From assembly GCA_032325415.1 (NCBI GenBank), contig GCA_032325415.1_4119.2: DNA of 45,695 nt, one strand, 5' to 3'. A program made the translations under genes and the position numbers. Source of the stretch: a phage. The notes below the pieces were generated by a model, which was not told the origin of the DNA, did not search any database, and worked only from the letters and a program-made list of their open reading frames with translations. Below, in pieces: positions 27,238 through 45,619 of the stretch. Position 1 is the stretch's first letter, and each line of letters opens with the position of its first letter.

Positions 27238-27238
27238 T

Positions 27239-27481
27239 ATGAAAGTACTGACAGAACTAGAAATGTATCATAGATTTAATAAGTACTATCATTTACTTAA
27301 GCCTATACAGAGGATTAAATGTCCATTTGAAGAGAAACAGGTTTTAATCTATGAGCACAAGTTCTTTGTATCATTAGGTACAGATCAACAAGAGTACTAT
27401 TTGACGTTGTACTTGATTACATTAATAGATTTAATTCACTATAAAACCAAACAAGCTAATAAAGAGAAATATGAAAACTAA
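27239..27481 (+). CDS. family-A small paralog (80 aa; track start 27206)
   Basis: ATG 27239 right after upstream stop; LGTDQQEYYLTLYLITLIDLI. Confidence 0.6.
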   Translation: MKVLTELEMYHRFNKYYHLLKPIQRIKCPFEEKQVLIYEHKFFVSLGTDQQEYYLTLYLITLIDLIHYKTKQANKEKYEN

Positions 27482-27815
27482 TATACAACTCAAGGTATAT
27501 AAATCATTTGAACATACATATATCAAAAGTAGTCTATGTAGAGATGTAATGGATTACAAGGGTAAGCCATTCACAATTACCTATGATTCTTATGTTAGTG
27601 ATTTATATATATCATTTGTTAATTACGAAAATAAAATATACAAGCACGTTGATATTAAAGATTTAAGTACTTTATCACCAGAGGAATACTTTCAGGAATC
27701 ATTAGTATGGGATTTAGAGTTTCCTATGCCATTAGTACATAAGATGATAGTACTAATGAAAGAATCTAAACAGGAGCCTAATGGTGATTATGAAGAACAC
27801 ACAGTTGAGTATTAA
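27471..27815 (+). CDS. family-B paralog (114 aa)
   Basis: Track ORF; motif LSPEEYFQESLVWDLEFP. Confidence 0.6.
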   Translation: MKTNIQLKVYKSFEHTYIKSSLCRDVMDYKGKPFTITYDSYVSDLYISFVNYENKIYKHVDIKDLSTLSPEEYFQESLVWDLEFPMPLVHKMIVLMKESKQEPNGDYEEHTVEY

Positions 27816-28185
27816 AAGTACTGATAATATTAAGAGTTATACAAGCTCAAGTACTGTGACAATCGAAGTGAATTCTATTAATGCTGGTAATGCAGTAGAT
27901 AAGTTCTTTATTGCTCAAGGGTACAGGAAAGATATTCATCAATATTGTTCAGTATATGGGGAGTACAATAGTACTGAAGATATAATTTATTGGTCAACAC
28001 ATCAAGATTATCTAACTAAAATTGGAGTCCCAGATGTTAGTACTTTATCTGAAGAAGAATACTTTCAGTACAGCTTAATATGTGATGTACCTATACCTTT
28101 AGGGTTAATCAAGGGTATACAGGAAGAGGTTCATAAGCTTAAATCCATGAGTAAAGGTACTTTCATTAGAACAGTGCAATACTAG
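27781..28185 (+). CDS. family-B paralog (134 aa)
   Basis: Track ORF; motif LSEEEYFQYSLICDVPIP. Confidence 0.6.
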   Translation: MVIMKNTQLSIKSTDNIKSYTSSSTVTIEVNSINAGNAVDKFFIAQGYRKDIHQYCSVYGEYNSTEDIIYWSTHQDYLTKIGVPDVSTLSEEEYFQYSLICDVPIPLGLIKGIQEEVHKLKSMSKGTFIRTVQY

Positions 28186-28186
28186 C

Positions 28187-28215
28187 TTGACAGTACTTTT
28201 CATTACTGATATAGT
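28187..28215 (+). promoter_or_regulatory. internal sigma70-like promoter within array
   Basis: -35 TTGACA 28187-28192, 17-bp spacer, -10 TATAGT 28210-28215. Confidence 0.5.
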
Positions 28216-28244
28216 ACACTAACGTTAATCATAGGGTAAAAATT

Positions 28245-28490
28245 ATGTTAAATTTTTTAAATTTCCTTATCGTTTTGTGTATTGTTCTTGGGATTGCACC
28301 ATTTGTATTGTATTTCATGGATTCAGATGAAATGCAGAAGATGAATTGTACAAGGACAGGACAGAGTAGAGAAGAGACGATTCTTATGCCTGTTACGGTT
28401 ATTGTTAACAACATGCCCATTACAAACATGGTCCCTACCCTAACGACAACGTACCAGTACTCTTGTGCTGACGGAGAGAGGTGGAGATGA
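28245..28490 (+). CDS. small membrane protein (81 aa) with N-terminal transmembrane helix
   Basis: MLNFLNFLIVLCIVLGIAPFVLYF hydrophobic N-terminus; own promoter; track ORF. Confidence 0.55.
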   Translation: MLNFLNFLIVLCIVLGIAPFVLYFMDSDEMQKMNCTRTGQSREETILMPVTVIVNNMPITNMVPTLTTTYQYSCADGERWR

Positions 28491-28807
28491 AATTTAATAT
28501 TGCAAAAACATCGAGTATATGTATTTTTGGTTATGCTGATGAGTTAGGTGATATTGACATTCTTTTGTACAAAAAGGATGGTGTTATGCATTTCAAGTAC
28601 CAGGATGAAGAGGCAGACAATTATCTTTTACCTAATTTAGTACAAATGCAGGAAGAGGAATTATTCCAGTACAGCTTAGTATACGACATTGATATTTGCA
28701 CGATGCCAGTACTAATTAGTATTCAAAAAGTGATGCTCGATATGTATGATAAGCTAATACAAGGTATGTCAGGGAGAATCATTGAAATCGATATACAAGA
28801 CAATTAA
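28487..28807 (+). CDS. family-B paralog (106 aa; track start 28481 is GTG)
   Basis: ATGA overlap; motif QEEELFQYSLVYDIDI. Confidence 0.6.
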   Translation: MKFNIAKTSSICIFGYADELGDIDILLYKKDGVMHFKYQDEEADNYLLPNLVQMQEEELFQYSLVYDIDICTMPVLISIQKVMLDMYDKLIQGMSGRIIEIDIQDN

Positions 28808-29000
28808 TCAAGAATGGAAGACCCAAAAGTACAGGGAATTCAACAGGAATTTTACAAAAGATGCATTGAATTTAAAAACAACAGAGTTTGATATGTTTAT
28901 TTTTCTTGGAACACGTTCACAAGAACAATTTGTTCATTATTATATAAATTCGTTGCGAACGGAGATAGTATGCAAAACACAGGGTATTATAAAAAGGTAA
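28782..29000 (+). CDS. family-A-like small paralog (72 aa)
   Basis: Track ORF; LGTRSQEQFVHYYINSLRTEI. Confidence 0.55.
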   Translation: MKSIYKTINQEWKTQKYREFNRNFTKDALNLKTTEFDMFIFLGTRSQEQFVHYYINSLRTEIVCKTQGIIKR

Positions 29001-29236
29001 ACCAATATTTGTACGCTACAAAGTACAGGGATTTTTGTTTAAAGGGTGGTGATGAAGATTTTTCTTTGCGATTATCAGAATTTAATCTGTTATTTTATCT
29101 TGGTACAAAAGAACAAGAAGAAATGGCACAGAAATTTATCAAGCACCTTGTACAAAAAATTAATATGCAAATTTTGATGCTTAAGATACAGAATGAGATA
29201 AATGAATATGAATCCAGAAATAGTTCAGGATCTTAA
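28970..29236 (+). CDS. family-A-like small paralog (88 aa)
   Basis: Track ORF; LGTKEQEEMAQKFIKHLVQKI. Confidence 0.55.
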   Translation: MQNTGYYKKVNQYLYATKYRDFCLKGGDEDFSLRLSEFNLLFYLGTKEQEEMAQKFIKHLVQKINMQILMLKIQNEINEYESRNSSGS

Positions 29237-29594
29237 AAAAGTAATATTTCTTTTGAATACCAGAAGTGAATTGTATACAGAGTTAAAAGAGATTAATGCA
29301 TTTTATCAGAATTTTGTAATCCAAGAGTTCAGTGATTTAATTACAGATGCATTATTTGAATTCTCGGAGAAATACAAAGGTTCAGAGTTCAGTGTTAAGA
29401 ATGTTATTCGTCCAAGTACAAGGAAAATTATATTATCACATTTTACATTTGACAATAAAGATTTATTCAGTCATAATCCAAGTACAGCTTTATATTTTAT
29501 TCCTGATTCAGACAAAAATCATCCTATTCATTACGGATGGATTTTGTCATATATAGTACAAGGAAAGGAGTATCCTATTAAATGGAAAGATTAG
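29202..29594 (+). CDS. hypothetical protein (130 aa), no family motif recognised
   Basis: Track ORF within array. Confidence 0.5.
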   Translation: MNMNPEIVQDLKKVIFLLNTRSELYTELKEINAFYQNFVIQEFSDLITDALFEFSEKYKGSEFSVKNVIRPSTRKIILSHFTFDNKDLFSHNPSTALYFIPDSDKNHPIHYGWILSYIVQGKEYPIKWKD

Positions 29595-29743
29595 GGCGAT
29601 TAGATTATTACACAATTAATACAAATTATTTGTTGCGTAATATAAAATCCGATTACAAAATATGGATAAAGAACAGAGATAGCATGTGTTATGAATTTTA
29701 TTTAGATTATGCTATCAAACGATTTTTAAGAGAAGAACATTAA
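29582..29743 (+). CDS. possible small protein (53 aa), not in track
   Basis: ATG 29582 to TAA 29741-29743, which overlaps the next ATG (TAATG); fills an otherwise empty gap. Confidence 0.35.
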   Translation: MERLGRLDYYTINTNYLLRNIKSDYKIWIKNRDSMCYEFYLDYAIKRFLREEH

Positions 29744-29946
29744 TGCAAAAGATTAATACGATAACATTAAATGCATTACAGGATTCATTATTAGATAGTA
29801 TTAAGATGTATTACAATATACATTTGAAGGGTGGTATTGATAATTACGATTATTATTTGAGTTTAATTACATTTGAGCACCTTTCAGTACAGGACAGGAT
29901 TTTACATCCTACAAATCCTAGGTATCCATCGATAGGTAAATTATGA
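29743..29946 (+). CDS. hypothetical protein (67 aa)
   Basis: Track ORF; start overlaps the 29582..29743 stop; next gene joins by ATGA. Confidence 0.5.
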   Translation: MQKINTITLNALQDSLLDSIKMYYNIHLKGGIDNYDYYLSLITFEHLSVQDRILHPTNPRYPSIGKL

Positions 29947-30491
29947 ATGAGATAGAGTTATTAGCACACAAGATAAGTACAATAATGCTTATCCTCAATA
30001 ACAACCATCCTATATCGCATATAGATGGAATCCTGAGTCAGAGGACAGGTGGTAGTTTATATTTGTCCATAAACGCAGATATCGCAAGGAAATACATTGA
30101 TATCGATGTTGAAATCGAATATGATACAACGGGGATTGTTGATGTAGGTGCATTAATCAGTTCAAATCCAGTATCAGCATCCCCATTGACCAAAGATGTT
30201 AGTACAGGATTCGAAGGATATTTGTGGTACAATACCAATGATGATTATTTTATATATCAGCATTCCAATACAAATTATGATGAAGACAAATTTCAGTTCA
30301 TAGACCCTTATGATGAAGCTGGCGTATTCCAACAATCATTAATCACAAAACCGCATGAGATGATGTATCTAATGTTATTCAGTACAATGCATTTGAATTC
30401 ATTAATTAAAGGTTTAAAATTTTATATTCAATTAAATTTAGTCCATGTAGTTTATGATTTATTAATGCAAGGATATAGTTATGAAGTATAA
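29943..30491 (+). CDS. family-B-like paralog (182 aa), degenerate motif
   Basis: Track ORF; DEAGVFQQSLITKPHEMMYLML. Confidence 0.55.
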   Translation: MNEIELLAHKISTIMLILNNNHPISHIDGILSQRTGGSLYLSINADIARKYIDIDVEIEYDTTGIVDVGALISSNPVSASPLTKDVSTGFEGYLWYNTNDDYFIYQHSNTNYDEDKFQFIDPYDEAGVFQQSLITKPHEMMYLMLFSTMHLNSLIKGLKFYIQLNLVHVVYDLLMQGYSYEV

Positions 30492-30792
30492 AATGATGTA
30501 TACCCCAGATATGATTTATGTTGAATTAGAAGATGATGACGATGGGTGGAATTTGATTTATTCAAGAAGTTCAGGTTGGTACATGGCACATTTAAATGAT
30601 TCGATAGTTACAGATTATTTTGTAGATTTCAATACATTATCCGATGAAGAATTGTTCCAACAGCAATTAGTGATTGACACGGGTGGTTATGATGTCTTAT
30701 TATTAAAAAAGATACAGAAAGCTGTTATTGATTTTAAGCCCATGATATGGCAAAGGAAATATTATGACCTCGAAGTACCGTACCAGCAATGA
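30481..30792 (+). CDS. family-B paralog (103 aa)
   Basis: Track ORF; LSDEELFQQQLVIDTGGYDVLLLKKIQ. Confidence 0.6.
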   Translation: MKYKMMYTPDMIYVELEDDDDGWNLIYSRSSGWYMAHLNDSIVTDYFVDFNTLSDEELFQQQLVIDTGGYDVLLLKKIQKAVIDFKPMIWQRKYYDLEVPYQQ

Positions 30793-31330
30793 AATTCAGT
30801 ACACCTACGCTAATGCAATCCTTATGGGACAAAAGTTAGCTTGTATTGTTGCAGCCTTATATAATGCCCAGAAATATCACAAGCGTCATTTCCACAAATG
30901 TATTGGTATTATTCCATCGAAGTACAATACATATATTGTGTGCACGAGTCATTTTGATAAACGATTCAATACACCTGATACCCCAAATTCCCGTAGTGTT
31001 ATTGGTCTTTTAGATTTCGCCCCTGGTGCTGTTATTGGAAAGAATGATTTAGAGTACGCATGGTATAATAAAAATTCCCCATTAGTAATGGTAACATATG
31101 ATAAAGAAACGAACAAAACAATAGAGTACAATACATATAAATCAGAGGAAGAATTTTTCCAAGGTTCATTGCTTGTACCAGTGCGTTTATTGTTTTATAA
31201 TGTCATAATGAGTACAGTACACAATAGTCCATTACACAAGAATCACAAAATTAATTTCAATTTTTGTGCTTATGCGATTGATGGTGTATATGAGTGTTTA
31301 ATGGAGGTATTGAGTTATGAAGCTGAATAA
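30764..31330 (+). CDS. family-B paralog (188 aa)
   Basis: Track ORF; SEEEFFQGSLLVPVRLL. Confidence 0.6.
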   Translation: MTSKYRTSNEIQYTYANAILMGQKLACIVAALYNAQKYHKRHFHKCIGIIPSKYNTYIVCTSHFDKRFNTPDTPNSRSVIGLLDFAPGAVIGKNDLEYAWYNKNSPLVMVTYDKETNKTIEYNTYKSEEEFFQGSLLVPVRLLFYNVIMSTVHNSPLHKNHKINFNFCAYAIDGVYECLMEVLSYEAE

Positions 31331-31658
31331 TACATTTGATATTAATAAGTTAAGAGAATGGTTTTATAGTATTGAAATTGAAGCCATCCCGTATCATAGA
31401 TATGAACAATATAATTTAACCAGTATTGATATCAGTGAGTTGTACGCGTATTATCAAAGTGCATTAGAGATGCATAAGTTATTTTTGAGTACAGATTTTG
31501 TTCTAAATTACAATTTTGAGGAATTTAATAATTATAATTTAGTACAGAAATATGTAGTAGCAAAGTACATGTACCTTCAAGGAATTACAAGTATAGTGGA
31601 ATTCAATACAGTCCTTGCTTTAGTTGAGGTAATTTTATGCAGTACATGTATGATTTAG
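31317..31658 (+). CDS. family-B-like paralog (113 aa), degenerate motif
   Basis: Track ORF; SELYAYYQSALEMHKLF. Confidence 0.5.
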   Translation: MKLNNTFDINKLREWFYSIEIEAIPYHRYEQYNLTSIDISELYAYYQSALEMHKLFLSTDFVLNYNFEEFNNYNLVQKYVVAKYMYLQGITSIVEFNTVLALVEVILCSTCMI

Positions 31659-32143
31659 AGTTCAGCTTAGATGCTGCATTTAAATATGTTCACAAGATAG
31701 AAACAATATACAGTACATTATGTGCAATAAAATCAGTAACAGAAGAGCTTGATGTTGGTGAAAGGTATCAGGTGTGGAATAATTCATTTTTTAATAAAGA
31801 ACATTCTGCGACGGTATTTTATATTTTAGCATTTAATCCCAGCAATTGTTACCCAGAGAAGCATGAACGTTATCCAAATGACGACATGTGGTTTGAGTAC
31901 AAAGAAGATGCTGATATGTCGTCAATTGAAGTTCCTGATGATTTTAATGCACAAGATTTAACAGAAGAGTGGTGGTTCCAGCAGAATTTAGTACATGATG
32001 ATATTGATTTATTTTTCTATATTGCATTTAAAATGCTTTATCACAACAATATAGTTAAAGAAAGTGTATCGTTTTCATGTCTATATATTGATGATTTGTA
32101 CAATGAAATTCAAATAAACATGCCCAGAACGCCTGTATCGTAA
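31637..32143 (+). CDS. family-B paralog (168 aa)
   Basis: Track ORF; LTEEWWFQQNLVHDDIDLFF. Confidence 0.6.
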   Translation: MQYMYDLEFSLDAAFKYVHKIETIYSTLCAIKSVTEELDVGERYQVWNNSFFNKEHSATVFYILAFNPSNCYPEKHERYPNDDMWFEYKEDADMSSIEVPDDFNAQDLTEEWWFQQNLVHDDIDLFFYIAFKMLYHNNIVKESVSFSCLYIDDLYNEIQINMPRTPVS

Positions 32144-32169
32144 GATATGGGCTTTTTTTCGTTTTGGTA

Positions 32170-32198
32170 TTGACATAGAAGACCAAAGCTGTTATCAT
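32170..32198 (+). promoter_or_regulatory. internal sigma70-like promoter within array
   Basis: -35 TTGACA 32170-32175, 17-bp spacer, -10 TATCAT 32193-32198; preceded by GCCCA...TGGGC hairpin plus T7 run (terminator-like). Confidence 0.45.
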
Positions 32199-32226
32199 GT
32201 GTATTCATTTTAAAGGAGAACATATA

Positions 32227-32739
32227 GTGAGTTTCATAATCCCAAGTACATACGAAGATGCATCAAGTGCAGTTCATAAGATTCATTATATTTTTAATTT
32301 AATTATTAGATCTGCAAAAATTAAAATGTATGCACCTCTTGTGACAAATAATCGAAATGAAGAAATTTTTATTAGCACAGACAAAATTATTTTTCCATAT
32401 TTCAATGAAGATAGATTGTGGTTCATACATTTAGCTGCATTACAAAAATATAAGATGTCAATTCGTAATAATTTGGTTATACCGTTATATCATCCAGATA
32501 TTGGAGAGGATGAGTATTTTCAGTACAGTACAGTACATCGCCATGAAGATATCTTTGTTGCTATGCTTATTGCTAAATTGAACACCGTTGATTTGGAGTA
32601 CCACAAATACAATAATAAATCATGTAAGATCATAATCCCTGCATTCATAGCTCTTTATGATTATGTGGTGCATAACAAAAAAGATGATACATATGCTTTC
32701 AATGAAGAGTATTTGGATTTTTTTAAGGATAACATATGA
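32227..32739 (+). CDS. family-B paralog (about 170 aa; GTG start, track start 32197)
   Basis: SD AAAGGAGAA precedes GTG 32227; motif IGEDEYFQYSTVHRHEDIFV. Confidence 0.55.
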   Translation: MSFIIPSTYEDASSAVHKIHYIFNLIIRSAKIKMYAPLVTNNRNEEIFISTDKIIFPYFNEDRLWFIHLAALQKYKMSIRNNLVIPLYHPDIGEDEYFQYSTVHRHEDIFVAMLIAKLNTVDLEYHKYNNKSCKIIIPAFIALYDYVVHNKKDDTYAFNEEYLDFFKDNI

Positions 32740-33275
32740 GCAGTACAACAGTATCAAAAGTACAGAAAGCAATGTCATTCAATGAAATTGGTACATTTAA
32801 AGATAAGATCATTGATTGCCTTGAATACATGATTTGTAGTAATATCGAAAGTATCGAGATATTTAACAAGACAAATCGCTCTTACCATATGATGTACATT
32901 GCAAACAATAATGGTATCATTCCATTTATTTCGGATAGTACAATATGGTACGCATGTGATACGAAAAAAACCACAATAGGTTTACATTTATTTGAGACAC
33001 ATTATGATCTAATTATTCCTGAACATTGTATGCAAGAAGAAGAATATTTTCAAATGCAATGTATACATTCACCATTAGTGTTGTTTAGTTTATATATTAT
33101 ACCTTATATCACCAAATGTGTTCATGACAATAAAGCTCCGTGGAATCATGAATTTGTATCGTTGAAGTTATTGTATAATGTATTAGTAGAATATTATGAT
33201 TACAGGCACAATGGTACAATCAGTGATGTATGGGATTTTGAATCGCTAAGGGTGAAAACATACACAGGTGAATGA
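32736..33275 (+). CDS. family-B paralog (179 aa)
   Basis: ATGA overlap; CMQEEEYFQMQCIHSPLVLF. Confidence 0.6.
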   Translation: MSSTTVSKVQKAMSFNEIGTFKDKIIDCLEYMICSNIESIEIFNKTNRSYHMMYIANNNGIIPFISDSTIWYACDTKKTTIGLHLFETHYDLIIPEHCMQEEEYFQMQCIHSPLVLFSLYIIPYITKCVHDNKAPWNHEFVSLKLLYNVLVEYYDYRHNGTISDVWDFESLRVKTYTGE

Positions 33276-33891
33276 TATGACCAGAATTAAAATGTATGAT
33301 TTGATGCAGTACAGTAAAATTGCCATTCCAGTGCTTAATAAAGTGCTGGATGCATTCATTGCCAAATACCCTGAGAATTCAGTGTTATGTATTCCATTTA
33401 GTGTTCCAGATAAAGATGATATATTCCAAGTGAATGTCAGTACACGTGGTATTACATTACAGCAGAAATACATGGATACGGAATATTATGGAATAAAGTT
33501 GGATTCAGTACAGGGTTCAAAATCAGCCTATGATTTTTTTGTTCCTAATAATATAGAGTCATGGGAAACAAACATTTCAAAGAAAGATGAAAATGATGTT
33601 CCTATTAGTGGTGTGTTCAACAATAAAGTTTTTTATTATTACGAAACCGACAAATTCCCTGAAGAGTTATATTACAATTCAGAAATGAATGAAGATGTAG
33701 ATGCATTCATGTTTCAATTATCTTTAGTACATGATATCATTGATGTTAAAGAGTTAAGAGCAGAAATCAATTTAGCTAAAGAGTTATCGGACATGCTGCC
33801 ACCGTTTAGTATGCTTTTTTGTGAAGGTGGTTATTTTTCAAAAGAAGTGTTTGAACATTTCGTAGATGTTGTAAAAGGGTTGGATATATAG
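33268..33891 (+). CDS. family-B paralog (207 aa)
   Basis: Track ORF; DVDAFMFQLSLVHDIIDVKELRAEI. Confidence 0.6.
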   Translation: MNDMTRIKMYDLMQYSKIAIPVLNKVLDAFIAKYPENSVLCIPFSVPDKDDIFQVNVSTRGITLQQKYMDTEYYGIKLDSVQGSKSAYDFFVPNNIESWETNISKKDENDVPISGVFNNKVFYYYETDKFPEELYYNSEMNEDVDAFMFQLSLVHDIIDVKELRAEINLAKELSDMLPPFSMLFCEGGYFSKEVFEHFVDVVKGLDI

Positions 33892-33892
33892 T

Positions 33893-34087
33893 ATGCTTAC
33901 AGTTGATGTTAAACAAAAATACCGTAAGTTTGATTGGTTCACCGACAGTTTCCAGCTTGAATTATTACATTTGAATATCTGTGAAACATTATGTGCAGAA
34001 ACACAAGATGAATTTGATGATAGAGTGATGAACATAGTAATGCTTTCTTGCTTTAAACATTTTGGTTATTTTTTCGGACAGAATTGA
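33893..34087 (+). CDS. hypothetical protein (64 aa)
   Basis: Track ORF within array. Confidence 0.45.
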   Translation: MLTVDVKQKYRKFDWFTDSFQLELLHLNICETLCAETQDEFDDRVMNIVMLSCFKHFGYFFGQN

Positions 34088-34095
34088 GGTAAAAA

Positions 34096-34611
34096 ATGCA
34101 TCAACACAAGCATCATTCATATGATTTTGCAATTAACATTATGAAGTTCATTCGAGCGTTGGAGGATGGGAAGCTTAGTCATAAGTACACCAAAGTGGGT
34201 GACAATTGGTTCAGAAATGATGATGAGTTCAGAAGTCATAAGATTGTTTACAGCAATAATTACAGTGCCAATTACCTACAAGATGTAGTGATGTGTTTTG
34301 AATACGTGTTGCAGTTCAGGGGTTCAATCCAGGATGAGTTGATGGAGCACATGTACATCAGATACCTTCCAATGCTCAAAGATGAAAATGTATTATTAAA
34401 TTCAATATACCAACGAGTTCGTGAAATTGAGTGCAGGGATATATTAGATACAGAAGAATCGTATTTCCAGCAATCCCTGATTTATGCACCTGATTTATTA
34501 CAGGTACATAATTTGTTTAATACATTACGTCAAAACATCAGTACAGACATATTTTTGTCATTATCGGATTATGATACATTTGTCAAAGATTTAGAGGAAA
34601 TAGGTTTATGA
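34096..34611 (+). CDS. family-B paralog (171 aa)
   Basis: SD GAGG then ATG 34096; LDTEESYFQQSLIYAPDLLQVHNLF. Confidence 0.6.
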   Translation: MHQHKHHSYDFAINIMKFIRALEDGKLSHKYTKVGDNWFRNDDEFRSHKIVYSNNYSANYLQDVVMCFEYVLQFRGSIQDELMEHMYIRYLPMLKDENVLLNSIYQRVREIECRDILDTEESYFQQSLIYAPDLLQVHNLFNTLRQNISTDIFLSLSDYDTFVKDLEEIGL

Positions 34612-34952: not shown

Positions 34953-34962
34953 GGAAAGTACA

Positions 34963-37918: not shown

Positions 37919-37927
37919 GATTATAAA

Positions 37928-38419
37928 ATGACATTACAGAGTGCATTGAAAGAAGCAAAGAAGATTCATGAGTACATGATTATGGCAAAAGAAGGTTCAG
38001 TTTACGGTGTTTTCAAAGACACAAGTACTCAATATTATGTACCGGATAACCTCCTTTATAATGACTGCTCAGATACAGAAACGTGTGTACTGGATACAGA
38101 AACGTGCATACTAGATACCGACCCTAATGATTATGAATGCTTCATTAATATGCATAATGAGTACATGGTCTATATTAATGATACAGATACCATCAACAGT
38201 ACTGACAGCGATTCCAATGACATTATAATTCCGAGTGAAGTACTGGAAGGTCCGTGGGATAGTGAAGAGTATTACTTCCAACAGAGTACTGTATATGATA
38301 ATGAAGTACTTGATGTTATTATAATTATGTGGTACTTTAAAAGTATTGGTTCTGGGAACTTCTATTTCGATTACAAATACGTAAAGAAAACTGTAGATAA
38401 CGGTATTAACAGGGGTTGA
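37928..38419 (+). CDS. family-B paralog, B2 subgroup (163 aa)
   Basis: N-terminus MTLQSALKEAKKIHEYMIM; C-terminus LEGPWDSEEYYFQQSTVYDNEVLDVIIIMWYFK; internal tandem repeat DTETCVLDTETCILDTD. Confidence 0.65.
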   Translation: MTLQSALKEAKKIHEYMIMAKEGSVYGVFKDTSTQYYVPDNLLYNDCSDTETCVLDTETCILDTDPNDYECFINMHNEYMVYINDTDTINSTDSDSNDIIIPSEVLEGPWDSEEYYFQQSTVYDNEVLDVIIIMWYFKSIGSGNFYFDYKYVKKTVDNGINRG

Positions 38420-38420
38420 A

Positions 38421-38891
38421 ATGAGTTTAGAAAGAGCATTAGAGATTGCGAAGTTAATTGATTTATGCAGCAAAGAAATTGTAGCAAATTGTCTTAATGG
38501 ATATCTATTCAAGGAAGGTAAATCATATTGTCGAATGAGATACGATGACAGTAGTGAGTACATTCACATGTATGAAGAAAACTTAGATTCTTCTGAAACA
38601 ACACTCAATGGGTGTGATGTTAATTTGGAAGATAATTACATGTACTTCTGTCGTGATGCTGATATTTTAATACAAGATTCTGACATTATATCTGGTGCAG
38701 CAGAGAAACATCTTCCGTATTCAGTACTGGATAATGACTGGGGAAGTGAAGAGTACTACTTCCAGCAGAATACTATCTACGAGGAAGATGTACTTGACAA
38801 GCTTGTCATTCTGTGGTACTTTAATAATACAGATTGTCCTAGCTTCTATTTGGACTTGGATCTACTACGAGTTATTAAAGAGGATATATGA
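38421..38891 (+). CDS. family-B paralog, B2 subgroup (156 aa)
   Basis: MSLERALEIAKLI ... LDNDWGSEEYYFQQNTIYEEDVLDKLVILWYF. Confidence 0.65.
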   Translation: MSLERALEIAKLIDLCSKEIVANCLNGYLFKEGKSYCRMRYDDSSEYIHMYEENLDSSETTLNGCDVNLEDNYMYFCRDADILIQDSDIISGAAEKHLPYSVLDNDWGSEEYYFQQNTIYEEDVLDKLVILWYFNNTDCPSFYLDLDLLRVIKEDI

Positions 38892-39331
38892 GTTTAGCAA
38901 GTGCACTTGAACTAGCACACAGAATACATCACTTCCACGATAACATAAAAAGTGGGTTCTATGGTGATAAAGTAAGTGCATTTGGTGATGAGTATTATCT
39001 ATCAGGTATAAAGACATACTCTGATGATATTTTACTTATGGGACAGGATAAAGACAATACTATACAGTACTCTTCATGTAGTCAATATACTAGTTTTTTT
39101 GTATATATTCCAGGTACTAAGATTACGTTTGACACATCAAATGCACCTGTTGACTTCGGGGTACTTGATGGCCCGTGGGGTACTGAAGAGTATTACTTCC
39201 AACAGAGTTTCATTTTTAACCAAGAAATGCTTGATTCCTTGGTTGTGTTGTGGTACTTTAAGGAATTGAATTTTGAACCATTCTTTCTTGACTGGGGAGC
39301 ATGTGAATATTTAAGTACAGGGGATTTGTAA
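38888..39331 (+). CDS. family-B paralog, B2 subgroup (147 aa)
   Basis: MSLASALELAHRIHH ... LDGPWGTEEYYFQQSFIFNQEMLDSLVVLWYFK. Confidence 0.65.
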   Translation: MSLASALELAHRIHHFHDNIKSGFYGDKVSAFGDEYYLSGIKTYSDDILLMGQDKDNTIQYSSCSQYTSFFVYIPGTKITFDTSNAPVDFGVLDGPWGTEEYYFQQSFIFNQEMLDSLVVLWYFKELNFEPFFLDWGACEYLSTGDL

Positions 39332-39819
39332 TGTCATTACAAAGTGCATTGAAAGAAGCAAAGAAGATTCATGAGTACATGATTATGGTACAGGAAGGTT
39401 CAGTACCAGGTGTATATAAAACATCTGATACTGAATTTTTTGTAAAAGACCGTGACGATTATGACGAGTCCGAGATATGTGCAGAAACATTAGTACTGCA
39501 CACTGATACTGGTGACAGTGATAACTGTGAATATCATATGTACAATCAGTACATTAGTTATTGCCGTAATGAAGATATTACCATCTACAACACAGATAGT
39601 GATGCTGATGACACTATCATTCCTTATTCAGTACTGGAAGGTCCGTGGGATAGTGAAGAGTATTACTTCCAGAATACTACGTTGTACAATGAAGAAGAAT
39701 TAGATGTTATTGTAATTATGTGGTATTTCAAAAGTATTGACTCCAGTAGTTTCTATTTTGATTATGAATATGTAGAGAATACTGTAGGAGAAGGTAATGT
39801 CATTACAAAGTGCTCTTGA
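39331..39819 (+). CDS. family-B paralog, B2 subgroup (162 aa)
   Basis: MSLQSALKEAKKIHEYMIM ... LEGPWDSEEYYFQNTTLYNEEELDVIVIMWYFK. Confidence 0.65.
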   Translation: MSLQSALKEAKKIHEYMIMVQEGSVPGVYKTSDTEFFVKDRDDYDESEICAETLVLHTDTGDSDNCEYHMYNQYISYCRNEDITIYNTDSDADDTIIPYSVLEGPWDSEEYYFQNTTLYNEEELDVIVIMWYFKSIDSSSFYFDYEYVENTVGEGNVITKCS

Positions 39820-40249
39820 AAAAGCAAAAGAACTACATGGATACTTTGACGATATAAAGGCAGGAAAGTTCAAAGAAGTGTACAAAGCCGAGAACGGCAA
39901 CTACTACAAGGATGAAATGTATAATAACTCCGTTGGTGTAAGGGTTATTCTTGGGTTGAATTCCAATAGTCCTATATCGTTTTCTGAATACAATAGAGAT
40001 GCAGAATTTATTAGTTATGTTGAAAATGGTAGCATTCGTTTTATTAATCGCAAAAAACCATTAATTTTGAATTATGAAGTACTGGAAGGTCCGTGGGATA
40101 GTGAAGAGTATTACTTCCAAAACAGTACTGTTTACGATGATGAAGTACTTGAAGCATTAGTTATTATGTGGTACTTAAAGAGTGTTAACTGTCCTCGATT
40201 TTATTTGGATTTCGAAGAACTTCGTAAAGATCCAGAAGGTATAGAATGA
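39797..40249 (+). CDS. family-B paralog, B2 subgroup (150 aa)
   Basis: MSLQSALEKAKELHGYF ... LEGPWDSEEYYFQNSTVYDDEVLEALVIMWYLK. Confidence 0.65.
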   Translation: MSLQSALEKAKELHGYFDDIKAGKFKEVYKAENGNYYKDEMYNNSVGVRVILGLNSNSPISFSEYNRDAEFISYVENGSIRFINRKKPLILNYEVLEGPWDSEEYYFQNSTVYDDEVLEALVIMWYLKSVNCPRFYLDFEELRKDPEGIE

Positions 40250-40560
40250 AAAACTTATTCAGTGTTCAGTACGTCCCTGGTGAAATTAGTTTATTGTATC
40301 TGTTTGATCATGATAATTCATTATTACTAGTAGTAAAGAAATGCCAAGCTAGTTCATTTGTTGAATACATTCACGATAGTGAATATATACCTGATTTTTT
40401 AGAGTGTGATTATTACGATGAACATGAATCATTTATTTTCCAGGAATCGCTCGTGTGGGATAAATCGATCAACTTCTTTACGTTAATTGAATTACAAAAG
40501 CAGGTGAAGTATCATTGGAATTACTTAATCACACAGGATTACATTGAGATAGAAATATAA
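40246..40560 (+). CDS. family-B paralog (104 aa)
   Basis: ATGA overlap; DEHESFIFQESLVWDKSINFFTLIELQ. Confidence 0.6.
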   Translation: MKNLFSVQYVPGEISLLYLFDHDNSLLLVVKKCQASSFVEYIHDSEYIPDFLECDYYDEHESFIFQESLVWDKSINFFTLIELQKQVKYHWNYLITQDYIEIEI

Positions 40561-40868
40561 TGACTAAAAATGAATTTGATTCACTTTGTACGGTTTATAA
40601 TTCATTGACAGAAATACCTGACTTTATTAATTACATTTCAGCTTTAAATCAAATTATGCATAGTTTTGAACAATCGTTTGAAGAGAAATATGCTGGTAGA
40701 AAAGTTCTATGTCATATGTCAATGTACTTAGGAGATGGTGAGCCTTACACTACAAGTACTACATGTGAAATAAAAAAATATAATATATTATTGGGGACAA
40801 TAGAATTCACAGTATCCAATGGTGGTAGTTATATGTACTTTAGAGATGGAGTGGTTGAATTATTATGA
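40560..40868 (+). CDS. hypothetical protein (102 aa), no family motif recognised
   Basis: Track ORF joined to neighbours by overlapping start/stop. Confidence 0.5.
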   Translation: MTKNEFDSLCTVYNSLTEIPDFINYISALNQIMHSFEQSFEEKYAGRKVLCHMSMYLGDGEPYTTSTTCEIKKYNILLGTIEFTVSNGGSYMYFRDGVVELL

Positions 40869-41314
40869 GTTACGAAAGTGCAATCAAGAAAGCAAATGAT
40901 ATTCTACGCGTCGTTAAATTCTTCAAAGAAAATCCTGAATACTTAGCTGATGAAAACCATGATCACGATGAGAGATTGAGACGAAAAATTGTCGCTTTAT
41001 TTGACACTAATGCGGATAATTATAGTCTAATTGAGTTAGCATACGATTATATTTCATTGAACCGAAACGGCAATATAGTTAATATAGAAAGACATGCAAC
41101 TGAAGAATCTTTTAAAATTTCAGATATTTTATCCCTGAGTACTGAAGAAGGGTACTTCCAGGGTAGTACTGTTTATGAACAAGGGACACTTGACAATCTA
41201 TGCACATTCAGTGTAATATATCAGAAATCTGTACTAGATGTATTTTATCTTGACACTGCTGAACTGGATACACTAACCAATTTTGTTACTACTGAAGAGG
41301 CTACATTCGAGTGA
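40865..41314 (+). CDS. family-B paralog, B2-like (149 aa)
   Basis: MSYESAIKKANDILRVV ... LSTEEGYFQGSTVYEQGTLDNL. Confidence 0.6.
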   Translation: MSYESAIKKANDILRVVKFFKENPEYLADENHDHDERLRRKIVALFDTNADNYSLIELAYDYISLNRNGNIVNIERHATEESFKISDILSLSTEEGYFQGSTVYEQGTLDNLCTFSVIYQKSVLDVFYLDTAELDTLTNFVTTEEATFE

Positions 41315-41847
41315 TGAAAGTTAACATCAATGACTTTGATGCATTACAAGATTTATCAAAAAAGATTCGCACCATTGTACCAGTACTCAAAAAATGCAGT
41401 ACTGGTTTAATCGATCCTAGTACTGTTGTTAATGAGAAGTACAATTTTCATTATGTATTACAGGGTACTGGGGCATTCCAGAAGTGTGAGGTGCGTGAGA
41501 CACACGTAATTGATACATCATTGTTTTCTATTGGTGCACCTGTGTCGAATAATACTATTTTCCTAGACAACGCTGGAAATATTCAACAATTAACATTTAA
41601 GAAAAGGAAAAAGAACAATAACATTGGTGTGTATGCGATGAAGTGGGGTCAACCTGATTTGAAGCGTGAAATTCACATCCCTAAGTACAATTACAATGCA
41701 TTTGACGAACAGTGTTTTCAACTATCGTGTACTGACCCTGACTATGCTATCATTCAGTTCTATATGGAATTGCAGATAGCATTTAACAGTAATTTGTATA
41801 TTAACTTATTGGCGATTAACATTGATGAAGTATTCAAAAACATTTAA
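41311..41847 (+). CDS. family-B-like paralog (178 aa), degenerate motif
   Basis: ATGA overlap; FDEQCFQLSCTDPDYAIIQFYMELQ. Confidence 0.55.
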   Translation: MMKVNINDFDALQDLSKKIRTIVPVLKKCSTGLIDPSTVVNEKYNFHYVLQGTGAFQKCEVRETHVIDTSLFSIGAPVSNNTIFLDNAGNIQQLTFKKRKKNNNIGVYAMKWGQPDLKREIHIPKYNYNAFDEQCFQLSCTDPDYAIIQFYMELQIAFNSNLYINLLAINIDEVFKNI

Positions 41848-42043
41848 TCGAATTGAATACATGAGAACTGTGAGTGCAGTGTGGGACATATGGTTCACTA
41901 CTAAACCAAAAATGGATTACCATGACTTTAAGCTCTTGTTCTTCGTTGGCTCTAACAAACAGGATGTTGCAATGAAGGGTTATATTCAGCACTTACAGGA
42001 ACTAATCCAGAAGAGAATATATGAAAATAATAGACCAAAATGA
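41822..42043 (+). CDS. family-A-like small paralog (73 aa)
   Basis: Track ORF; VGSNKQDVAMKGYIQHLQELI. Confidence 0.55.
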   Translation: MMKYSKTFNRIEYMRTVSAVWDIWFTTKPKMDYHDFKLLFFVGSNKQDVAMKGYIQHLQELIQKRIYENNRPK

Positions 42044-42212
42044 CATTGCTAAACTATTCAATATATATTCTACTAGAATGATGCAAACAGACTCATATAG
42101 TACTGAATTCAAAGAGTTGAAAGTCCTGATGTACTTGGGAACCCAATATCAGGAACAAGTTATTTTGGAATATATTAATTCGCTGAAGAAGGATATCCGT
42201 TATGTACGATGA
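42021..42212 (+). CDS. family-A small paralog (63 aa)
   Basis: Track ORF; LGTQYQEQVILEYINSLKKDI. Confidence 0.6.
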   Translation: MKIIDQNDIAKLFNIYSTRMMQTDSYSTEFKELKVLMYLGTQYQEQVILEYINSLKKDIRYVR

Positions 42213-42762
42213 TTTAGATATTGCGTTTGAACGTATGGTAATTTTAATGCAATGTGCAGAAATGCATGAAACAATCCGTCGCACCAAAGGGATTGAATAT
42301 ACAAGTAAACTATTCTCATACGAAAGTCGTCGAGGGATGGATCATTTTTACTGCACTGATTGTTCAAAGTTTTCAGTACTGAAATATTATCATCCTACTG
42401 TTTCCAATAATAGTTTAATATCCACATATGACGGTGTTCTGTTTAGTGTAATGTATGACACATTACATCCATCAATTTCAATCTATAAAGATTGCGATAG
42501 TAGTTTATCGTATATAATTGAAGATTACTTATCTCCTAATACTGAAGAGAATATTTTTCAGAACAGTGTGTTGCATGATGAATTAAGCATAAAATGCATC
42601 TATATGTTCAATAAGTTAAAAGAGTACGCCGATAATAATTACTTAATTGATAAGTTAGCAGTATTGTCTGTTTCCGTTTTTAATACAAATGACATTGATA
42701 TGAAATACTATAATGAGATTTGTAAAGTACATCATATGTATAAGGAACTATTATGTCAATAA
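42202..42762 (+). CDS. family-B paralog (186 aa)
   Basis: Track ORF; LSPNTEENIFQNSVLHDELSIKCIYMF. Confidence 0.6.
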   Translation: MYDDLDIAFERMVILMQCAEMHETIRRTKGIEYTSKLFSYESRRGMDHFYCTDCSKFSVLKYYHPTVSNNSLISTYDGVLFSVMYDTLHPSISIYKDCDSSLSYIIEDYLSPNTEENIFQNSVLHDELSIKCIYMFNKLKEYADNNYLIDKLAVLSVSVFNTNDIDMKYYNEICKVHHMYKELLCQ

Positions 42763-43355
42763 ATGCAAATAAATGTTGTAGTGCAGATGTGCATTTGTTT
42801 TTTAAGAAATTAGCAAATGATATTATATATATGCAGGAAATGATTTATCACAAACGAGCGGATTTAGAAAAAGCATTAGTACAGTTCTCATTTATGCTTG
42901 ATGGTGATATATTTCTAGAGAGTGATGCATTGCGAATAGTATTAGACAAAAATGCTAAAAGATTTTTATTTCATATAGATAATAAATTATGTTCCTCCGT
43001 ATGTCGTACTTTTTATAATCGTGATTCGGACTTATATCAATTCCTTTATTCTAAAGGTGCAGTAGAAGCATCATATGGTGATGGTTATGCCCTAGGAAAG
43101 AGTATTCCATTTATGAAATCATTTAAAATAGAACACATCAGTACTGATGAAGATGCAATGTTCACAAATGATATAACTATGGGACGTGAAGATGCAATGC
43201 GATATATTACAAATTCTATGCATACATTCTTTCAACGAACAGAATTTGATAATGTATATATATCAAATGTAAATATTTTCAATGACCTGTGTCAGTACTT
43301 GAGAAGTGTTTGTGATTTTGATGAAAGCTATTGTAAGCTTTATACTGAGGTATAA
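42753..43355 (+). CDS. hypothetical protein (200 aa), family-B motif not clear
   Basis: Track ORF in array. Confidence 0.5.
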   Translation: MSINANKCCSADVHLFFKKLANDIIYMQEMIYHKRADLEKALVQFSFMLDGDIFLESDALRIVLDKNAKRFLFHIDNKLCSSVCRTFYNRDSDLYQFLYSKGAVEASYGDGYALGKSIPFMKSFKIEHISTDEDAMFTNDITMGREDAMRYITNSMHTFFQRTEFDNVYISNVNIFNDLCQYLRSVCDFDESYCKLYTEV

Positions 43356-43360
43356 AACAA

Positions 43361-43723
43361 ATGAACACATTAAGTATTACATACTATACAACTAAAAAAT
43401 TAGTTACTTGTTTAATATCATTGAAGACAAACCATGATGATATGTTTGATATGGCTGCATATGAATTAGAATTATCAGAAGATGGCTTCAAGAGCTATGA
43501 AGTATATAGCTATGTTCGTGAAGATGTAATTGACACTACACTAATGCAAGAGGATGAGTTATTCCAAGAAAGTTTAGTATGGGATAATAAGTACGATTGT
43601 AACTTTGATTTCTTATGTTTAATCCAGAAAGAAATGAAAAGAATCTTTGATAATTATCCAGTGAAGAGATTGAGTACTGGACCGGAGCAGTACAGGAGAA
43701 TTTTATTCCGTTATGAAGACTGA
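43361..43723 (+). CDS. family-B paralog, B1 subgroup (120 aa)
   Basis: LMQEDELFQESLVWDNKYDCNFDFLCLIQKEMK. Confidence 0.6.
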   Translation: MNTLSITYYTTKKLVTCLISLKTNHDDMFDMAAYELELSEDGFKSYEVYSYVREDVIDTTLMQEDELFQESLVWDNKYDCNFDFLCLIQKEMKRIFDNYPVKRLSTGPEQYRRILFRYED

Positions 43724-44048
43724 ATTAGTGAAAGTAATGTACGCTACTCATATTAAACTACTACTTGTGAAATTTGATTATAATAAAAAACATAATGATT
43801 TCTATACTTTAATTCGTGATGAAAATACATTCTCCTTGCGATGCAACAATATACCGTTGAAGATAAATGATTTTACTTCACTTGACGAGGGTGAATTATT
43901 TCAAGAATCATTAGTTTTTAATAGTAATATAAAAATTGATATAGAAGTTATTAAAAAATACCAGATTTTATTGAACAAAATTATGAATTGTTATCCATGT
44001 GAAATAGGTGGTCATATGCAGTTCAAATCAAAAATGTATGAATTATGA
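43713..44048 (+). CDS. family-B paralog, B1-like (111 aa)
   Basis: LDEGELFQESLVFNSNIKIDIEVIKK. Confidence 0.6.
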   Translation: MKTELVKVMYATHIKLLLVKFDYNKKHNDFYTLIRDENTFSLRCNNIPLKINDFTSLDEGELFQESLVFNSNIKIDIEVIKKYQILLNKIMNCYPCEIGGHMQFKSKMYEL

Positions 44049-44055
44049 GGTTTAT

Positions 44056-44592
44056 ATGTTAGATAAAAAAATGAACTCTGGAACCCAATATAATCATCTT
44101 AAGTTGGATACATTCGAATCAGCTATCAGTACAGCACAAGATATAATTGATATTATCAAGTTCATTAAAGAAGATAAGTTCAAATGTTTGAAAATACTAA
44201 ATCGTTCAATGTACCGTGATAAAAATATTCATGTATCAGTACGTAGACCGAAAGAACAAGAAAGTGGGAGAGATTTCTATAACAACAGTGAGCAGTTCGA
44301 ATGTGAATATGATCCAGAATTTAGAGGTGGTTTCATGTGTTACTGTATGAAGGATACCTCACACATTGAGATACGTTCATCGAAAGGTGGCATACGTACA
44401 TTAGAGTTTATTGATATAGTTTTAAATCAGGAATACTACTTTCAACTATCATTATTGTTTCCTGCATACGATTTAGGAGTTCTATTCATGTATAAGTACT
44501 TTCATGAGCACTGGAATGAAGACTTCTATCTGGACTTAGAAGATTACCACTTAGTTTGGAAAGAAATGGTAAAACTTCGCAACCCATCTTGA
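44056..44592 (+). CDS. family-B paralog, B2-like (178 aa; track start 44008)
   Basis: SD GAGG then ATG 44056; FESAISTAQDIIDIIKFI ... NQEYYFQLSLLFPAYDLGVLFMYKYF. Confidence 0.6.
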   Translation: MLDKKMNSGTQYNHLKLDTFESAISTAQDIIDIIKFIKEDKFKCLKILNRSMYRDKNIHVSVRRPKEQESGRDFYNNSEQFECEYDPEFRGGFMCYCMKDTSHIEIRSSKGGIRTLEFIDIVLNQEYYFQLSLLFPAYDLGVLFMYKYFHEHWNEDFYLDLEDYHLVWKEMVKLRNPS

Positions 44593-44618
44593 CACCCTCC
44601 GATTCTTTGTGATATAAT
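44589..44618 (+). promoter_or_regulatory. internal sigma70-like promoter within array
   Basis: -35 TTGACA 44589-44594 overlapping the upstream stop, 18-bp spacer, -10 TATAAT 44613-44618. Confidence 0.5.
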
Positions 44619-44651
44619 CTCTTTATATTAATTGTAAAGGGTTATATCACA

Positions 44652-45128
44652 ATGTCCAAAGACCTATCATTTAGCAATGCACAAAAAATAGCAAAAGACA
44701 TTATCAGGGTTTATAAATTCCTTACAAATGTTACTGAAGATTTTTCCGTGGGCAAACATACAGTCAAAAAAAGAAATGGATACCTTTCCTTTATGGATGG
44801 GTTACTCTATAGTTCAGATGAATCAACTTGTAGTATTAGAGTGCTTGATGAAGTACCAAGTGGTGATTTTATTTCATACCATTTCCCAAGTTCAGATAAT
44901 TTCAAATACTACAATCATCATCTTATAAATGAAGGATTTGATACGGCTGAAATTAACACTGAAGAAGAGTTCTTCCAGTACAGTACTGTGTATCCAGAGA
45001 GGATTGTTTTCAGTTCAGTGATTTACACTGCCCTTAAAAATGAACTAAATTCAGATAGTGATCATTTCTACTTGGACCTGAACAATCTCGATTGTATTAT
45101 TGAGTACCTGGAGAAAAATGGTTTATGA
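44652..45128 (+). CDS. family-B paralog, B2-like (158 aa)
   Basis: SD AAAGGG then ATG 44652; FSNAQKIAKDIIRVYKFL ... NTEEEFFQYSTVYPERIVFSSV ... FYLDLNNL. Confidence 0.65.
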   Translation: MSKDLSFSNAQKIAKDIIRVYKFLTNVTEDFSVGKHTVKKRNGYLSFMDGLLYSSDESTCSIRVLDEVPSGDFISYHFPSSDNFKYYNHHLINEGFDTAEINTEEEFFQYSTVYPERIVFSSVIYTALKNELNSDSDHFYLDLNNLDCIIEYLEKNGL

Positions 45129-45619
45129 TTACTACAGAATATGATTACGATGGTGTTTTAGAATTTGCAGAAAATATCTATCGCATTGCAAAGGAGTTCA
45201 GAAGTCCTGACCCATTTGGTGGTATGTTCGAATACGATGAGTTTAGTTCATCCAAAGGAAGACTTGCGTTTACTAATGAAAGAGGTAATCAAATCTATGC
45301 CGAGTACTTTGATGACAATGACTTTCATTACAAAGCCGGATACATTTCATATTGCCCTGGGTCTGATTTGAAGATTAATATTGACAATTATAGAGAAGCA
45401 GTATTTGTTAAGTATGATGATTTAGTGCTCATGTCAGAGGAAATGTACTTTCAGGGTTCTTGTATTCATGATGTAAAAGTACTTAATGCTATGTTATTTT
45501 ATGGTGCACTACTTCATCATTACAAATACAAACAACGATTCTTTTTAGATTTAGTAGTATACTATAAATGCGTGGATTATTTGAATGCAAAATACGACAA
45601 CAATTCAGTACATGACTGA
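45125..45619 (+). CDS. family-B paralog (164 aa)
   Basis: ATGA overlap; LMSEEMYFQGSCIHDVKVLNAMLFYG ... FFLDLVVY. Confidence 0.65.
   Translation: MITTEYDYDGVLEFAENIYRIAKEFRSPDPFGGMFEYDEFSSSKGRLAFTNERGNQIYAEYFDDNDFHYKAGYISYCPGSDLKINIDNYREAVFVKYDDLVLMSEEMYFQGSCIHDVKVLNAMLFYGALLHHYKYKQRFFLDLVVYYKCVDYLNAKYDNNSVHD

Follow-up and report, generated by a model that had tools for sequence, protein, structure and literature searches.

Among the multigene families of large eukaryotic DNA viruses are MGF360, MGF505 and MGF110 of African swine fever virus (ASFV) and the terminal host-range families of poxviruses. Early gene clusters also lie at the genome ends of bacteriophages, such as the pre-early genes in the terminal repeat of T5 and the host-takeover module of SPO1. 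In Bacillus phage G, a lineage-specific expansion of about 35 zinc-ribbon proteins has been called 'unprecedented' (Iyer et al. 2021, PMC7824862). Here we describe an expansion in a 45,695-nucleotide stretch of phage DNA (GenBank assembly GCA_032325415.1, contig GCA_032325415.1_4119.2; hereafter the window), in which 31 of the 47 genes between positions 27471 and 45619 belong to one family of small proteins, here called family B. Like the zinc ribbons of phage G it is a very large single-family expansion of small proteins in one jumbo phage, but the phage G proteins are built on a cysteine-based zinc ribbon, whereas family B has no cysteine pattern and occurs in another phage group. Family B belongs with the lineage-specific multigene expansions of large viruses, and the domain on which it is built is uncharacterised.

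Organisation and membership of the array

The window comes from an Escherichia coli jumbo phage of the 121Q/PBECO4 type (genus Asteriusvirus), of whose genome it forms the left end. Region 27471-45619 aligns over its full length with Escherichia phage vB_EcoM_G17 (G17) at 98.6% identity and matches 36 records, all of them from 121Q/PBECO4-type jumbo phages of Escherichia or Salmonella in the genus Asteriusvirus; all genes under the match are annotated 'hypothetical protein'. The 47 genes lie on the + strand and 97.7% of the region is coding. Overlaps occur at 36 of the 46 gene junctions (11 by 4 nucleotides (nt), of the ATGA type, and four by 1 nt), and only four gaps within the array exceed 40 nt. 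Besides the family B genes there are four genes of a second family, A, and 12 unrelated small open reading frames (ORFs). These data bear out the extent of the array and the overlapping same-strand genes described in a first-pass annotation of the sequence, but not its estimate of 35-40 copies in the window or its statement that nearly every product carries the shared motif. The window holds 31 members and one incomplete copy at 45585-45695, and member sizes are 103-207 amino acids (aa) rather than the 100-200 aa first given. Counts of 38-44 hold for the whole array of complete genomes (41 in G17, 44 in fEgEco12, 40 in 121Q and 38 in ph0011, by iterated profile), and in G17 the array runs about 10 kb past the window end.

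The array lies near a direct terminal repeat, which in fEgEco12 is 20,993 bp long and experimentally confirmed (PMC13070987). In that genome the family A array runs from 21,091 and the first matching family B gene is at 27,623. Comparison of alignment coordinates with fEgEco12 suggests that the window begins about 0.7 kb ahead of the repeat, which would end at about 20.9 kb. The order after the repeat is family A (21104-27481) and then the family B array, which begins about 6.5 kb inward of the ~21-kb repeat.

Members share the block [ST]-E-E-x-[YF]-F-Q-x-S-[LT]-[VI]-[YWH]-D, present in 31 array genes, with F and Q invariant both in a 30-sequence alignment and in a 37-sequence alignment of short forms. 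A hidden Markov model (HMM) seeded with the motif recovered 30 ORFs at E<1e-8, two of them outside the seed, and a 31st at 0.02; over six frames of the whole window it found no further ORF, the next-best E being 0.05. All 31 match an iterated HMM built with orthologs added from four other genomes. In a leave-cluster-out test, where each member was scored by an HMM from members outside its BLAST cluster, 27 of the 31 had E<1e-3, three lay at 0.0016-0.016 and 41314-41847 failed; the iterated score of 5.1e-18 for the last was reached only with its own orthologs inside the profile. None of the 31 shuffled and none of the 31 reversed control sequences reached E<1e-3. We count 27 members as robust, three as weaker and 41314-41847 as doubtful.

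The arrays are AT-rich (GC content 0.29-0.35 over 27000-45695, against 0.36-0.40 in the terminal repeat, 1-21000), as might be expected if the motif were a low-complexity artefact or the ORFs non-functional duplicates. The first-pass annotation had named such an artefact among the findings that would overturn its claim, and the explanation is hardly credible. The other-frame, shuffled and reversed controls rule it out, no match lies elsewhere in the window, and the motif is kept in 124 protein clusters. Two members are predicted by AlphaFold2 (AF2) with predicted local distance difference test (pLDDT) values of 78 and 90. The ratio of non-synonymous to synonymous divergence (dN/dS) is about 0.23, and family B therefore consists of coding genes under selection.

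The family had not been recognised at first pass, and database searches agree. None of 30 members matched Pfam at E<=0.01; NCBIfam and PADLOC gave only isolated single-member hits at E of about 1e-3, the chance level for 30 queries; and PDB searches with three family B profiles gave no match (best E 0.24, 0.15 and 0.053). PHROG matches are to groups 12674, 9317, 13866, 15629, 19795, 30978 and 28680, all of 'unknown function', with E-values down to 1e-121 for a member's own group and of 1e-6 to 1e-13 across groups. On this profile evidence, these PHROGs are fragments of one family that has been split into many unannotated groups. The literature searched (papers on 121Q, PBECO4, phAPEC6, Sharanji, fEgEco12 and CBB, and jumbo-phage overviews) neither describes family B nor mentions family A.

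An exhaustive profile search of 1.84 billion representative sequences returned only 124 clusters (50% identity), all of 65-205 aa and nearly all carrying the [ST]EE-x-[YF]FQ-x-S motif. Nothing was added by a further indexed search, for which the profile comprised 104 sequences, and no isolate phage was hit when two distant members served as tblastn queries; the distant clusters come from metagenome contigs with the same tandem architecture. In the Klebsiella phage fENko-Kae01, from another genus cluster, a 27-gene overlapping array starts 86 bp after a 19,736-bp repeat, and a 35-kb stretch holds 20 family B ORFs at E<1e-3, including one from a further small cluster downstream, and no family A. 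The Klebsiella phage RaK2 (Alcyoneusvirus) has 19 family B genes at E<1e-3 and at least nine family A genes in 24 kb, in the same order, and its distal B members are collinear with those of G17. Judged from these searches, family B is specific to RaK2-like enterobacterial jumbo phages, that is Asteriusvirus, Alcyoneusvirus and the fENko-Kae01 group. Its presence in the rest of the clade is suggested by Foldseek matches in BFVD to proteins of GAP32, Serratia BF and a Yersinia phage.

AF2 models, read as confidence values and secondary structure, suggest that family B members share an alpha/beta domain. The short form 37206-37562 (pLDDT 89.8, predicted template modelling score (pTM) 0.85) is modelled as five beta strands, a helix at residues 65-74 containing ELFQESLVFD, a second helix at 83-99 and a final strand. 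The model of the long form 37928-38419 (pLDDT 78, pTM 0.74; 93-97 pLDDT in the motif region) has in addition a helix at each terminus and an acidic insert that is poorly predicted. The common predicted core would be a five-stranded antiparallel sheet, the EE-x-[YF]-FQ-x-S helix, a second helix and a closing strand.

Two other readings of the motif found no support. The bacterial beta-clamp-binding motif (QL[SD]LF or QLxLxL) has L at positions 2 and 4 and lies in a disordered segment; in family B, the residue at position 2 varies (E/Q/Y/G/N/L/M), about half of the members have T at position 4, and the motif sits in a predicted helix with pLDDT 93-97. Sites for proteases of the tobacco etch virus (TEV)/NIa type, ExxYxQ(G/S), need an accessible linker and a cognate protease. 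Only 40865-41314 (EEGYFQG) and 45125-45619 (EEMYFQG) fit the strict TEV consensus, and no such protease was seen; the match is probably a coincidence because the site lies in a helix that is confidently predicted. The use of TEV-cleavable tags with these two proteins nevertheless calls for practical caution.

Age, selection and gene turnover

Only 18 of the 465 paralog pairs in the window are detectable by BLAST over half their length, and their maximum identity is 58%. The subgroups B1, B2 and 'others' seen at first pass resolve into two BLAST clusters of seven members each and 17 singletons, which only the profile connects. In five Asteriusvirus genomes the family falls into 49 ortholog groups, and most groups occur in all genomes that include the corresponding stretch of the array. 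Between G17 and fEgEco12, the median dN/dS of B orthologs (pairwise Nei-Gojobori) is 0.23 (interquartile range 0.18-0.31, n=34), similar to the 0.35 of family A and the 0.26 of other genes of the region, and omega exceeds 1 in one of 36 ortholog pairs, at a very low dS of 0.05. Recent amplification, or an 'accordion', was rejected, since BLAST fails to link most of the paralogs and the orthologs are conserved. On these comparisons family B is an old and maintained repertoire with some gene gain and loss, and its copies are probably non-redundant because each paralog has been kept as an ortholog under purifying selection.

Comparison of related genomes, proposed in the first-pass annotation, showed the copy numbers given above and variable presence among the five genomes for 13 of the 49 ortholog groups. 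Both G17 and 121Q have one extra B gene (121Q_384 type, EEEMFQYSTVF) between the counterparts of 43361-43723 and 43713-44048, a clean single-gene presence/absence difference in genomes that are about 98% identical. The dS of adjacent array genes ranges from 0.05 to 2.9, and this spread between neighbours indicates gene-by-gene mosaic exchange.

Expression and predicted role of family B

We tentatively favour the reading that the B array is an early, cytoplasmic repertoire of host-interaction proteins, serving takeover or counter-defence. Early in infection, sigma-70 promoters would let host RNA polymerase transcribe the array. Gene overlap points to translational coupling, so that many paralogs would appear together, and their products would act in the cytoplasm on host components. 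The conserved FQ-helix core would be a common scaffold or a common docking element, and each paralog would owe a target of its own to the rest of the protein, which is strongly divergent. The place of the array by the repeat, the promoters in its gaps, the absence of members from the virion proteome and the 13 variable ortholog groups are in keeping with an accessory, host-directed role. To that extent the 'diversifying accessory system' of the first-pass annotation is supported in part, but the ancient paralogs and purifying selection speak against recent or ongoing amplification.

All four gaps of more than 40 nt hold + strand sigma-70-like sites (11/12 with TG, 11/12 with TG, 10/12, and 12/12 with TG), and 18 sites of at least 11/12 lie in the adjacent terminal repeat. 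In PA5oct, a related phage that relies on host RNA polymerase, the genes of the repeat are early (PMC7318152). We infer that host RNA polymerase transcribes the B array early from sigma-70 promoters. The virion proteome of phAPEC6 (62 proteins) includes none of gp424c-gp466c, the 43 genes covering the array (PMC7247149). A permissive proteome of fENko-Kae01 by liquid chromatography-tandem mass spectrometry (LC-MS/MS) detected one of the 27 array genes, the marginal member ENKO_077, in a sample that had only been ultrafiltered (>300-kDa lysate fraction), and its authors caution that detection is not proof of virion membership. Family B is probably made early and absent from the virus particle. 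Jumbo phages do package many proteins, and the detection of ENKO_077 could be taken to mean that the paralogs are internal virion proteins injected with the DNA, but the phAPEC6 result largely refutes this and we regard it as very improbable.

Coupled co-expression, as suggested by the overlapping junctions, together with one conserved module, variable remainders and the retention of every paralog, could also be expected if the paralogs were the parts of a single assembly inside the infected cell, such as a scaffold associated with replication or packaging, with the FQ module as interface and coupling to balance the amounts. This is unlikely: a fixed assembly would poorly tolerate the variation of 13 ortholog groups between close relatives, copy numbers differ between genera, and just one array protein appeared in the >300-kDa fraction of the fENko-Kae01 lysate.

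The proteins are mostly acidic (median isoelectric point (pI) 4.74, median net charge -10), as are the DNA mimics Ocr, ArdA and Arn, and the paralogs might accordingly be acidic DNA mimics, anti-restriction proteins or RNA polymerase modulators. We consider this quite unlikely, as the PDB yielded no structural resemblance to Ocr, ArdA, Arn or any other mimic, three of the 31 members are neutral or basic (pI above 7.5, 7.6-8.2), and forty non-redundant copies are hard to square with a single target class. An 'immunity-like' action in phage-phage competition or superinfection exclusion would agree with the early position, the mosaic exchange and the presence/absence variation between co-circulating relatives. 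Classical exclusion proteins, however, are usually membrane proteins, no transmembrane segment was found in any family B member, and we find this role decidedly improbable.

Several observations weigh against the host-interaction repertoire that we favour. Pairwise dN/dS gave no sign of positive selection between B orthologs, and no hypervariable segment or surface patch was found along them, ortholog identity being even along the protein (68-81%) except at FQ (97%); this is weaker than arms-race proteins would show. Purifying selection like that of the neighbouring genes fits any conserved function. The promoter calls are consensus matches from which early expression is deduced, and because sigma-70-like matches are not enriched over the region (99 found, 110 expected), the promoter evidence consists of their placement in the gaps. 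The AF2 models are silent on ligands and interfaces.

A more specific form of the host-interaction repertoire, which we think unlikely as it stands, is an adaptor library on a new fold, in which the FQ helix docks one hub and the divergent sheets capture different host proteins. The hub would belong either to the phage or to the host, in the latter case a machine such as RNA polymerase or a protease, and the captured proteins could, for example, be components of different defence systems. If so, one array would neutralise or redirect dozens of targets at once and set which enterobacterial strains are permissive, and it would be the equivalent, in a bacterial virus, of the multigene families at the genome ends of ASFV and poxviruses. 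Should family B consist of host-interaction effectors of any kind, it offers many small proteins, so far untapped, that bind or inhibit bacterial proteins and have a fold without a confident PDB match. Otherwise, a jumbo phage keeps up 40 non-redundant copies of a single domain for reasons not yet guessed.

Neighbouring features and comparison with known systems

Coordinates of the array members and other features are collected in the table. Gene starts were adjusted for some members. The ORF of 32227-32739 opens at 32197, where the promoter overlaps the ATG, and G17 uses a GTG equivalent to 32227; for 34963-35505, which opens at 34891, the likely start is the ATG at 34963, as in the G17 annotation; and a longer ORF from 36192 for 36300-36677 is an over-extension by the same annotation. 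The G17 counterpart of the incomplete last member (L001:33492-33854) carries SEEELFQQSTIS.

Table. Features of the family B array and its surroundings in the window. Scores are E-values for HMM and Pfam matches and consensus positions for promoters.
Feature	Coordinates	Strand	Evidence or remark
DksA/TraR C4 zinc-finger protein, terminal repeat	12787-13044		Pfam E 2e-11
GNAT acetyltransferase, terminal repeat	13108-13464		Pfam E 4e-9
213-aa protein, weak protein-kinase match	16884-17525		E 3e-3, below cut-off
Main family A array, 28 tandem genes, ~52-96 aa	21104-27481	+	directly upstream of B array
Family B, short form, 114 aa, EEYFQESLVWD	27471-27815	+	iterated HMM 2.8e-18; leave-cluster-out 1.5e-7
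Family B, 134 aa, EEEYFQYSLICD	27781-28185	+	iterated HMM 3.4e-18; leave-cluster-out 9e-8
Sigma-70-like promoter TTGACA-17-TATAGT with TG, gap 28186-28244	28187-28215	+	11/12
81-aa ORF, N-terminal hydrophobic segment, phrog_8826 (unknown function)	28245-28490		directly after first internal promoter
Family B, short form (ORF opens 28481)	28487-28807	+	iterated HMM 2.1e-18; leave-cluster-out 2.6e-11
Two interspersed family A genes, LGTxxQE motif	28782-29236	+	family A HMM 2.6e-19, 1.3e-16; phrog_4148
Family B, long form, 182 aa	29943-30491	+	iterated HMM 3.4e-24; leave-cluster-out 7.9e-8
Family B, short form, 103 aa	30481-30792	+	iterated HMM 3.7e-13; leave-cluster-out 2.7e-8
Family B, long form, 188 aa	30764-31330	+	iterated HMM 4.2e-25; phrog_19795
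Family B, 168 aa	31637-32143	+	iterated HMM 3.5e-27; leave-cluster-out 6.1e-8
Intrinsic-terminator-like hairpin and T run	32131-32152	+	only one in array; G17 terminator annotated there
Sigma-70-like promoter TTGACA-17-TATCAT with TG, directly after hairpin	32170-32198	+	11/12
Family B	32227-32739	+	iterated HMM 2.2e-15; leave-cluster-out 6.5e-5
Family B, 179 aa	32736-33275	+	iterated HMM 8e-16; leave-cluster-out 9.9e-6
Family B, ~204 aa, weaker	33277-33891	+	iterated HMM 1.6e-14; leave-cluster-out 0.016
Family B, 171 aa	34096-34611	+	iterated HMM 3.1e-25; leave-cluster-out 2.9e-6
Family B, degenerate motif EDEAARFQYETAYD, weaker	34608-34952	+	first-pass HMM 0.02; iterated 9.6e-11; leave-cluster-out 0.0016
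Family B	34963-35505	+	iterated HMM 3.4e-19; leave-cluster-out 1.7e-6
Sigma-70-like promoter TTGACA-17-AAAAAT, gap 36103-36299	36115-36143	+	10/12
Family B, short form, 125 aa	36300-36677	+	iterated HMM 1.7e-17; leave-cluster-out 0.0022
Family B, short form, 123 aa	36835-37206	+	iterated HMM 2.5e-16; leave-cluster-out 2.1e-6
Family B, short form, 118 aa, structure predicted	37206-37562	+	iterated HMM 8e-21
Family B, short form, 119 aa, not in seed	37559-37918	+	motif-seeded HMM 3e-9; iterated 9.7e-19
Family B, long form, 163 aa, PWDSEEYYFQ subgroup, structure predicted	37928-38419	+	iterated HMM 9.5e-32
Family B, PWDSEEYYFQ subgroup	38421-38891	+	iterated HMM 4.6e-32
Family B, PWDSEEYYFQ subgroup	38888-39331	+	iterated HMM 5.1e-30
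Family B, PWDSEEYYFQ subgroup	39331-39819	+	iterated HMM 1.4e-33
Family B, PWDSEEYYFQ subgroup	39797-40249	+	iterated HMM 1.9e-35; leave-cluster-out 1.3e-10
Family B, short form, 104 aa	40246-40560	+	iterated HMM 1.4e-10; leave-cluster-out 3.7e-5
Family B, 149 aa, EEGYFQGS	40865-41314	+	iterated HMM 9.7e-24; phrog_12674
Doubtful family B, DEQCFQLSCTD	41314-41847	+	iterated HMM 5.1e-18; leave-cluster-out E 4.3
Two interspersed family A genes	41822-42212	+	family A HMM 2.8e-18, 1.3e-17
Family B, 186 aa	42202-42762	+	iterated HMM 7e-18; leave-cluster-out 1.2e-4
Family B, short form, 120 aa	43361-43723	+	iterated HMM 4.3e-16
Family B, short form, 111 aa	43713-44048	+	iterated HMM 1.9e-14; ortholog group 34
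Family B (ORF opens 44008; likely start 44056)	44056-44592	+	iterated HMM 3.9e-32; leave-cluster-out 3.7e-10
Perfect sigma-70 promoter TTGACA-18-TATAAT with TG, gap 44593-44651	44589-44618	+	12/12
Family B, 158 aa	44652-45128	+	iterated HMM 4.3e-31; phrog_12674
Family B, 164 aa, EEMYFQGS	45125-45619	+	iterated HMM 6.3e-28; leave-cluster-out 3.8e-11
32nd family B member, N-terminus, cut by window end	45585-45695	+	36/37 residues identical to G17 L001:33492-33854

Family A has 32 genes in the window, encoding proteins of about 52-96 aa that carry the motif LGT[ND]YQE with an invariant Q and match phrog_4148 (unknown function). Its proteins are mostly basic (median pI 8.1). Some 100 bp separate the terminal repeat from the start of the main family A array, and a further four copies are scattered through the B array; in RaK2 and in the metagenome contig L003, where it lies upstream, family A is likewise found upstream of or within the B arrays. 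On an hhalign probability of 0.2%, we rejected the idea that family A (NYQE) is a piece of family B (YFQE) or is related to it. The only membrane-type protein of the region is the non-member at 28245-28490. In the distal array, a 137-aa non-member (ph0011 L008 32360-32773; G17 L001 41434-41847) is annotated 'putative ADP-ribosyl transferase' in ph0011 only.

The terminal repeat (~700-20900) consists of small genes split by 60-250-nt spacers, whose recurrent sequence yields spurious peptides such as MFYIE.G and CKTLY.NL.TMQVLF. Paralog pairs within it are 2799-3077/4845-5114 (DUF7249), 3127-3429/15892-16296 and 8879-9223/15437-15805, the last with the common ending DVKRKKD[LM]. The fENko-Kae01 counterpart of the 16884-17525 protein is annotated 'putative protein kinase'; on these matches the DksA/TraR, GNAT and kinase-like proteins would be typical of host-takeover functions. 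GC skew is positive throughout the window, consistent with all genes lying on one strand, and a tRNA scan of the window found none.

Families A and B together amount to about 70 genes, or about one gene in eight of a 350-kb phage, and these phages have repeatedly been isolated as candidates for therapy directed at E. coli, Salmonella and Klebsiella. The position of the array by the terminal repeat is kept in at least three genera, so the array is a defining feature of the whole RaK2-like clade. Like the early clusters of T5 and SPO1, the locus comprises small genes of unknown function at a genome end with strong host-type promoters. In T5 and SPO1 the genes are unrelated and each has its own promoter, which matches the terminal repeat here (~0.7-20.9 kb); the B array differs from those clusters in being one family in long multi-gene units. 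Set against the ~35 zinc ribbons of phage G, the 38-44 copies of family B equal or exceed that expansion, and they stand beside a second family, A, of about 32. The resemblance to the families of ASFV and poxviruses lies in tens of divergent, same-direction tandem paralogs placed by terminal repeats in a linear double-stranded DNA genome of large size, non-structural, and varying in gene content between isolates. Unlike those families, family B belongs to viruses of a bacterial host, has no sequence or fold relationship to them, and consists of small single-domain proteins from overlapping genes, so the likeness is one of analogy only.

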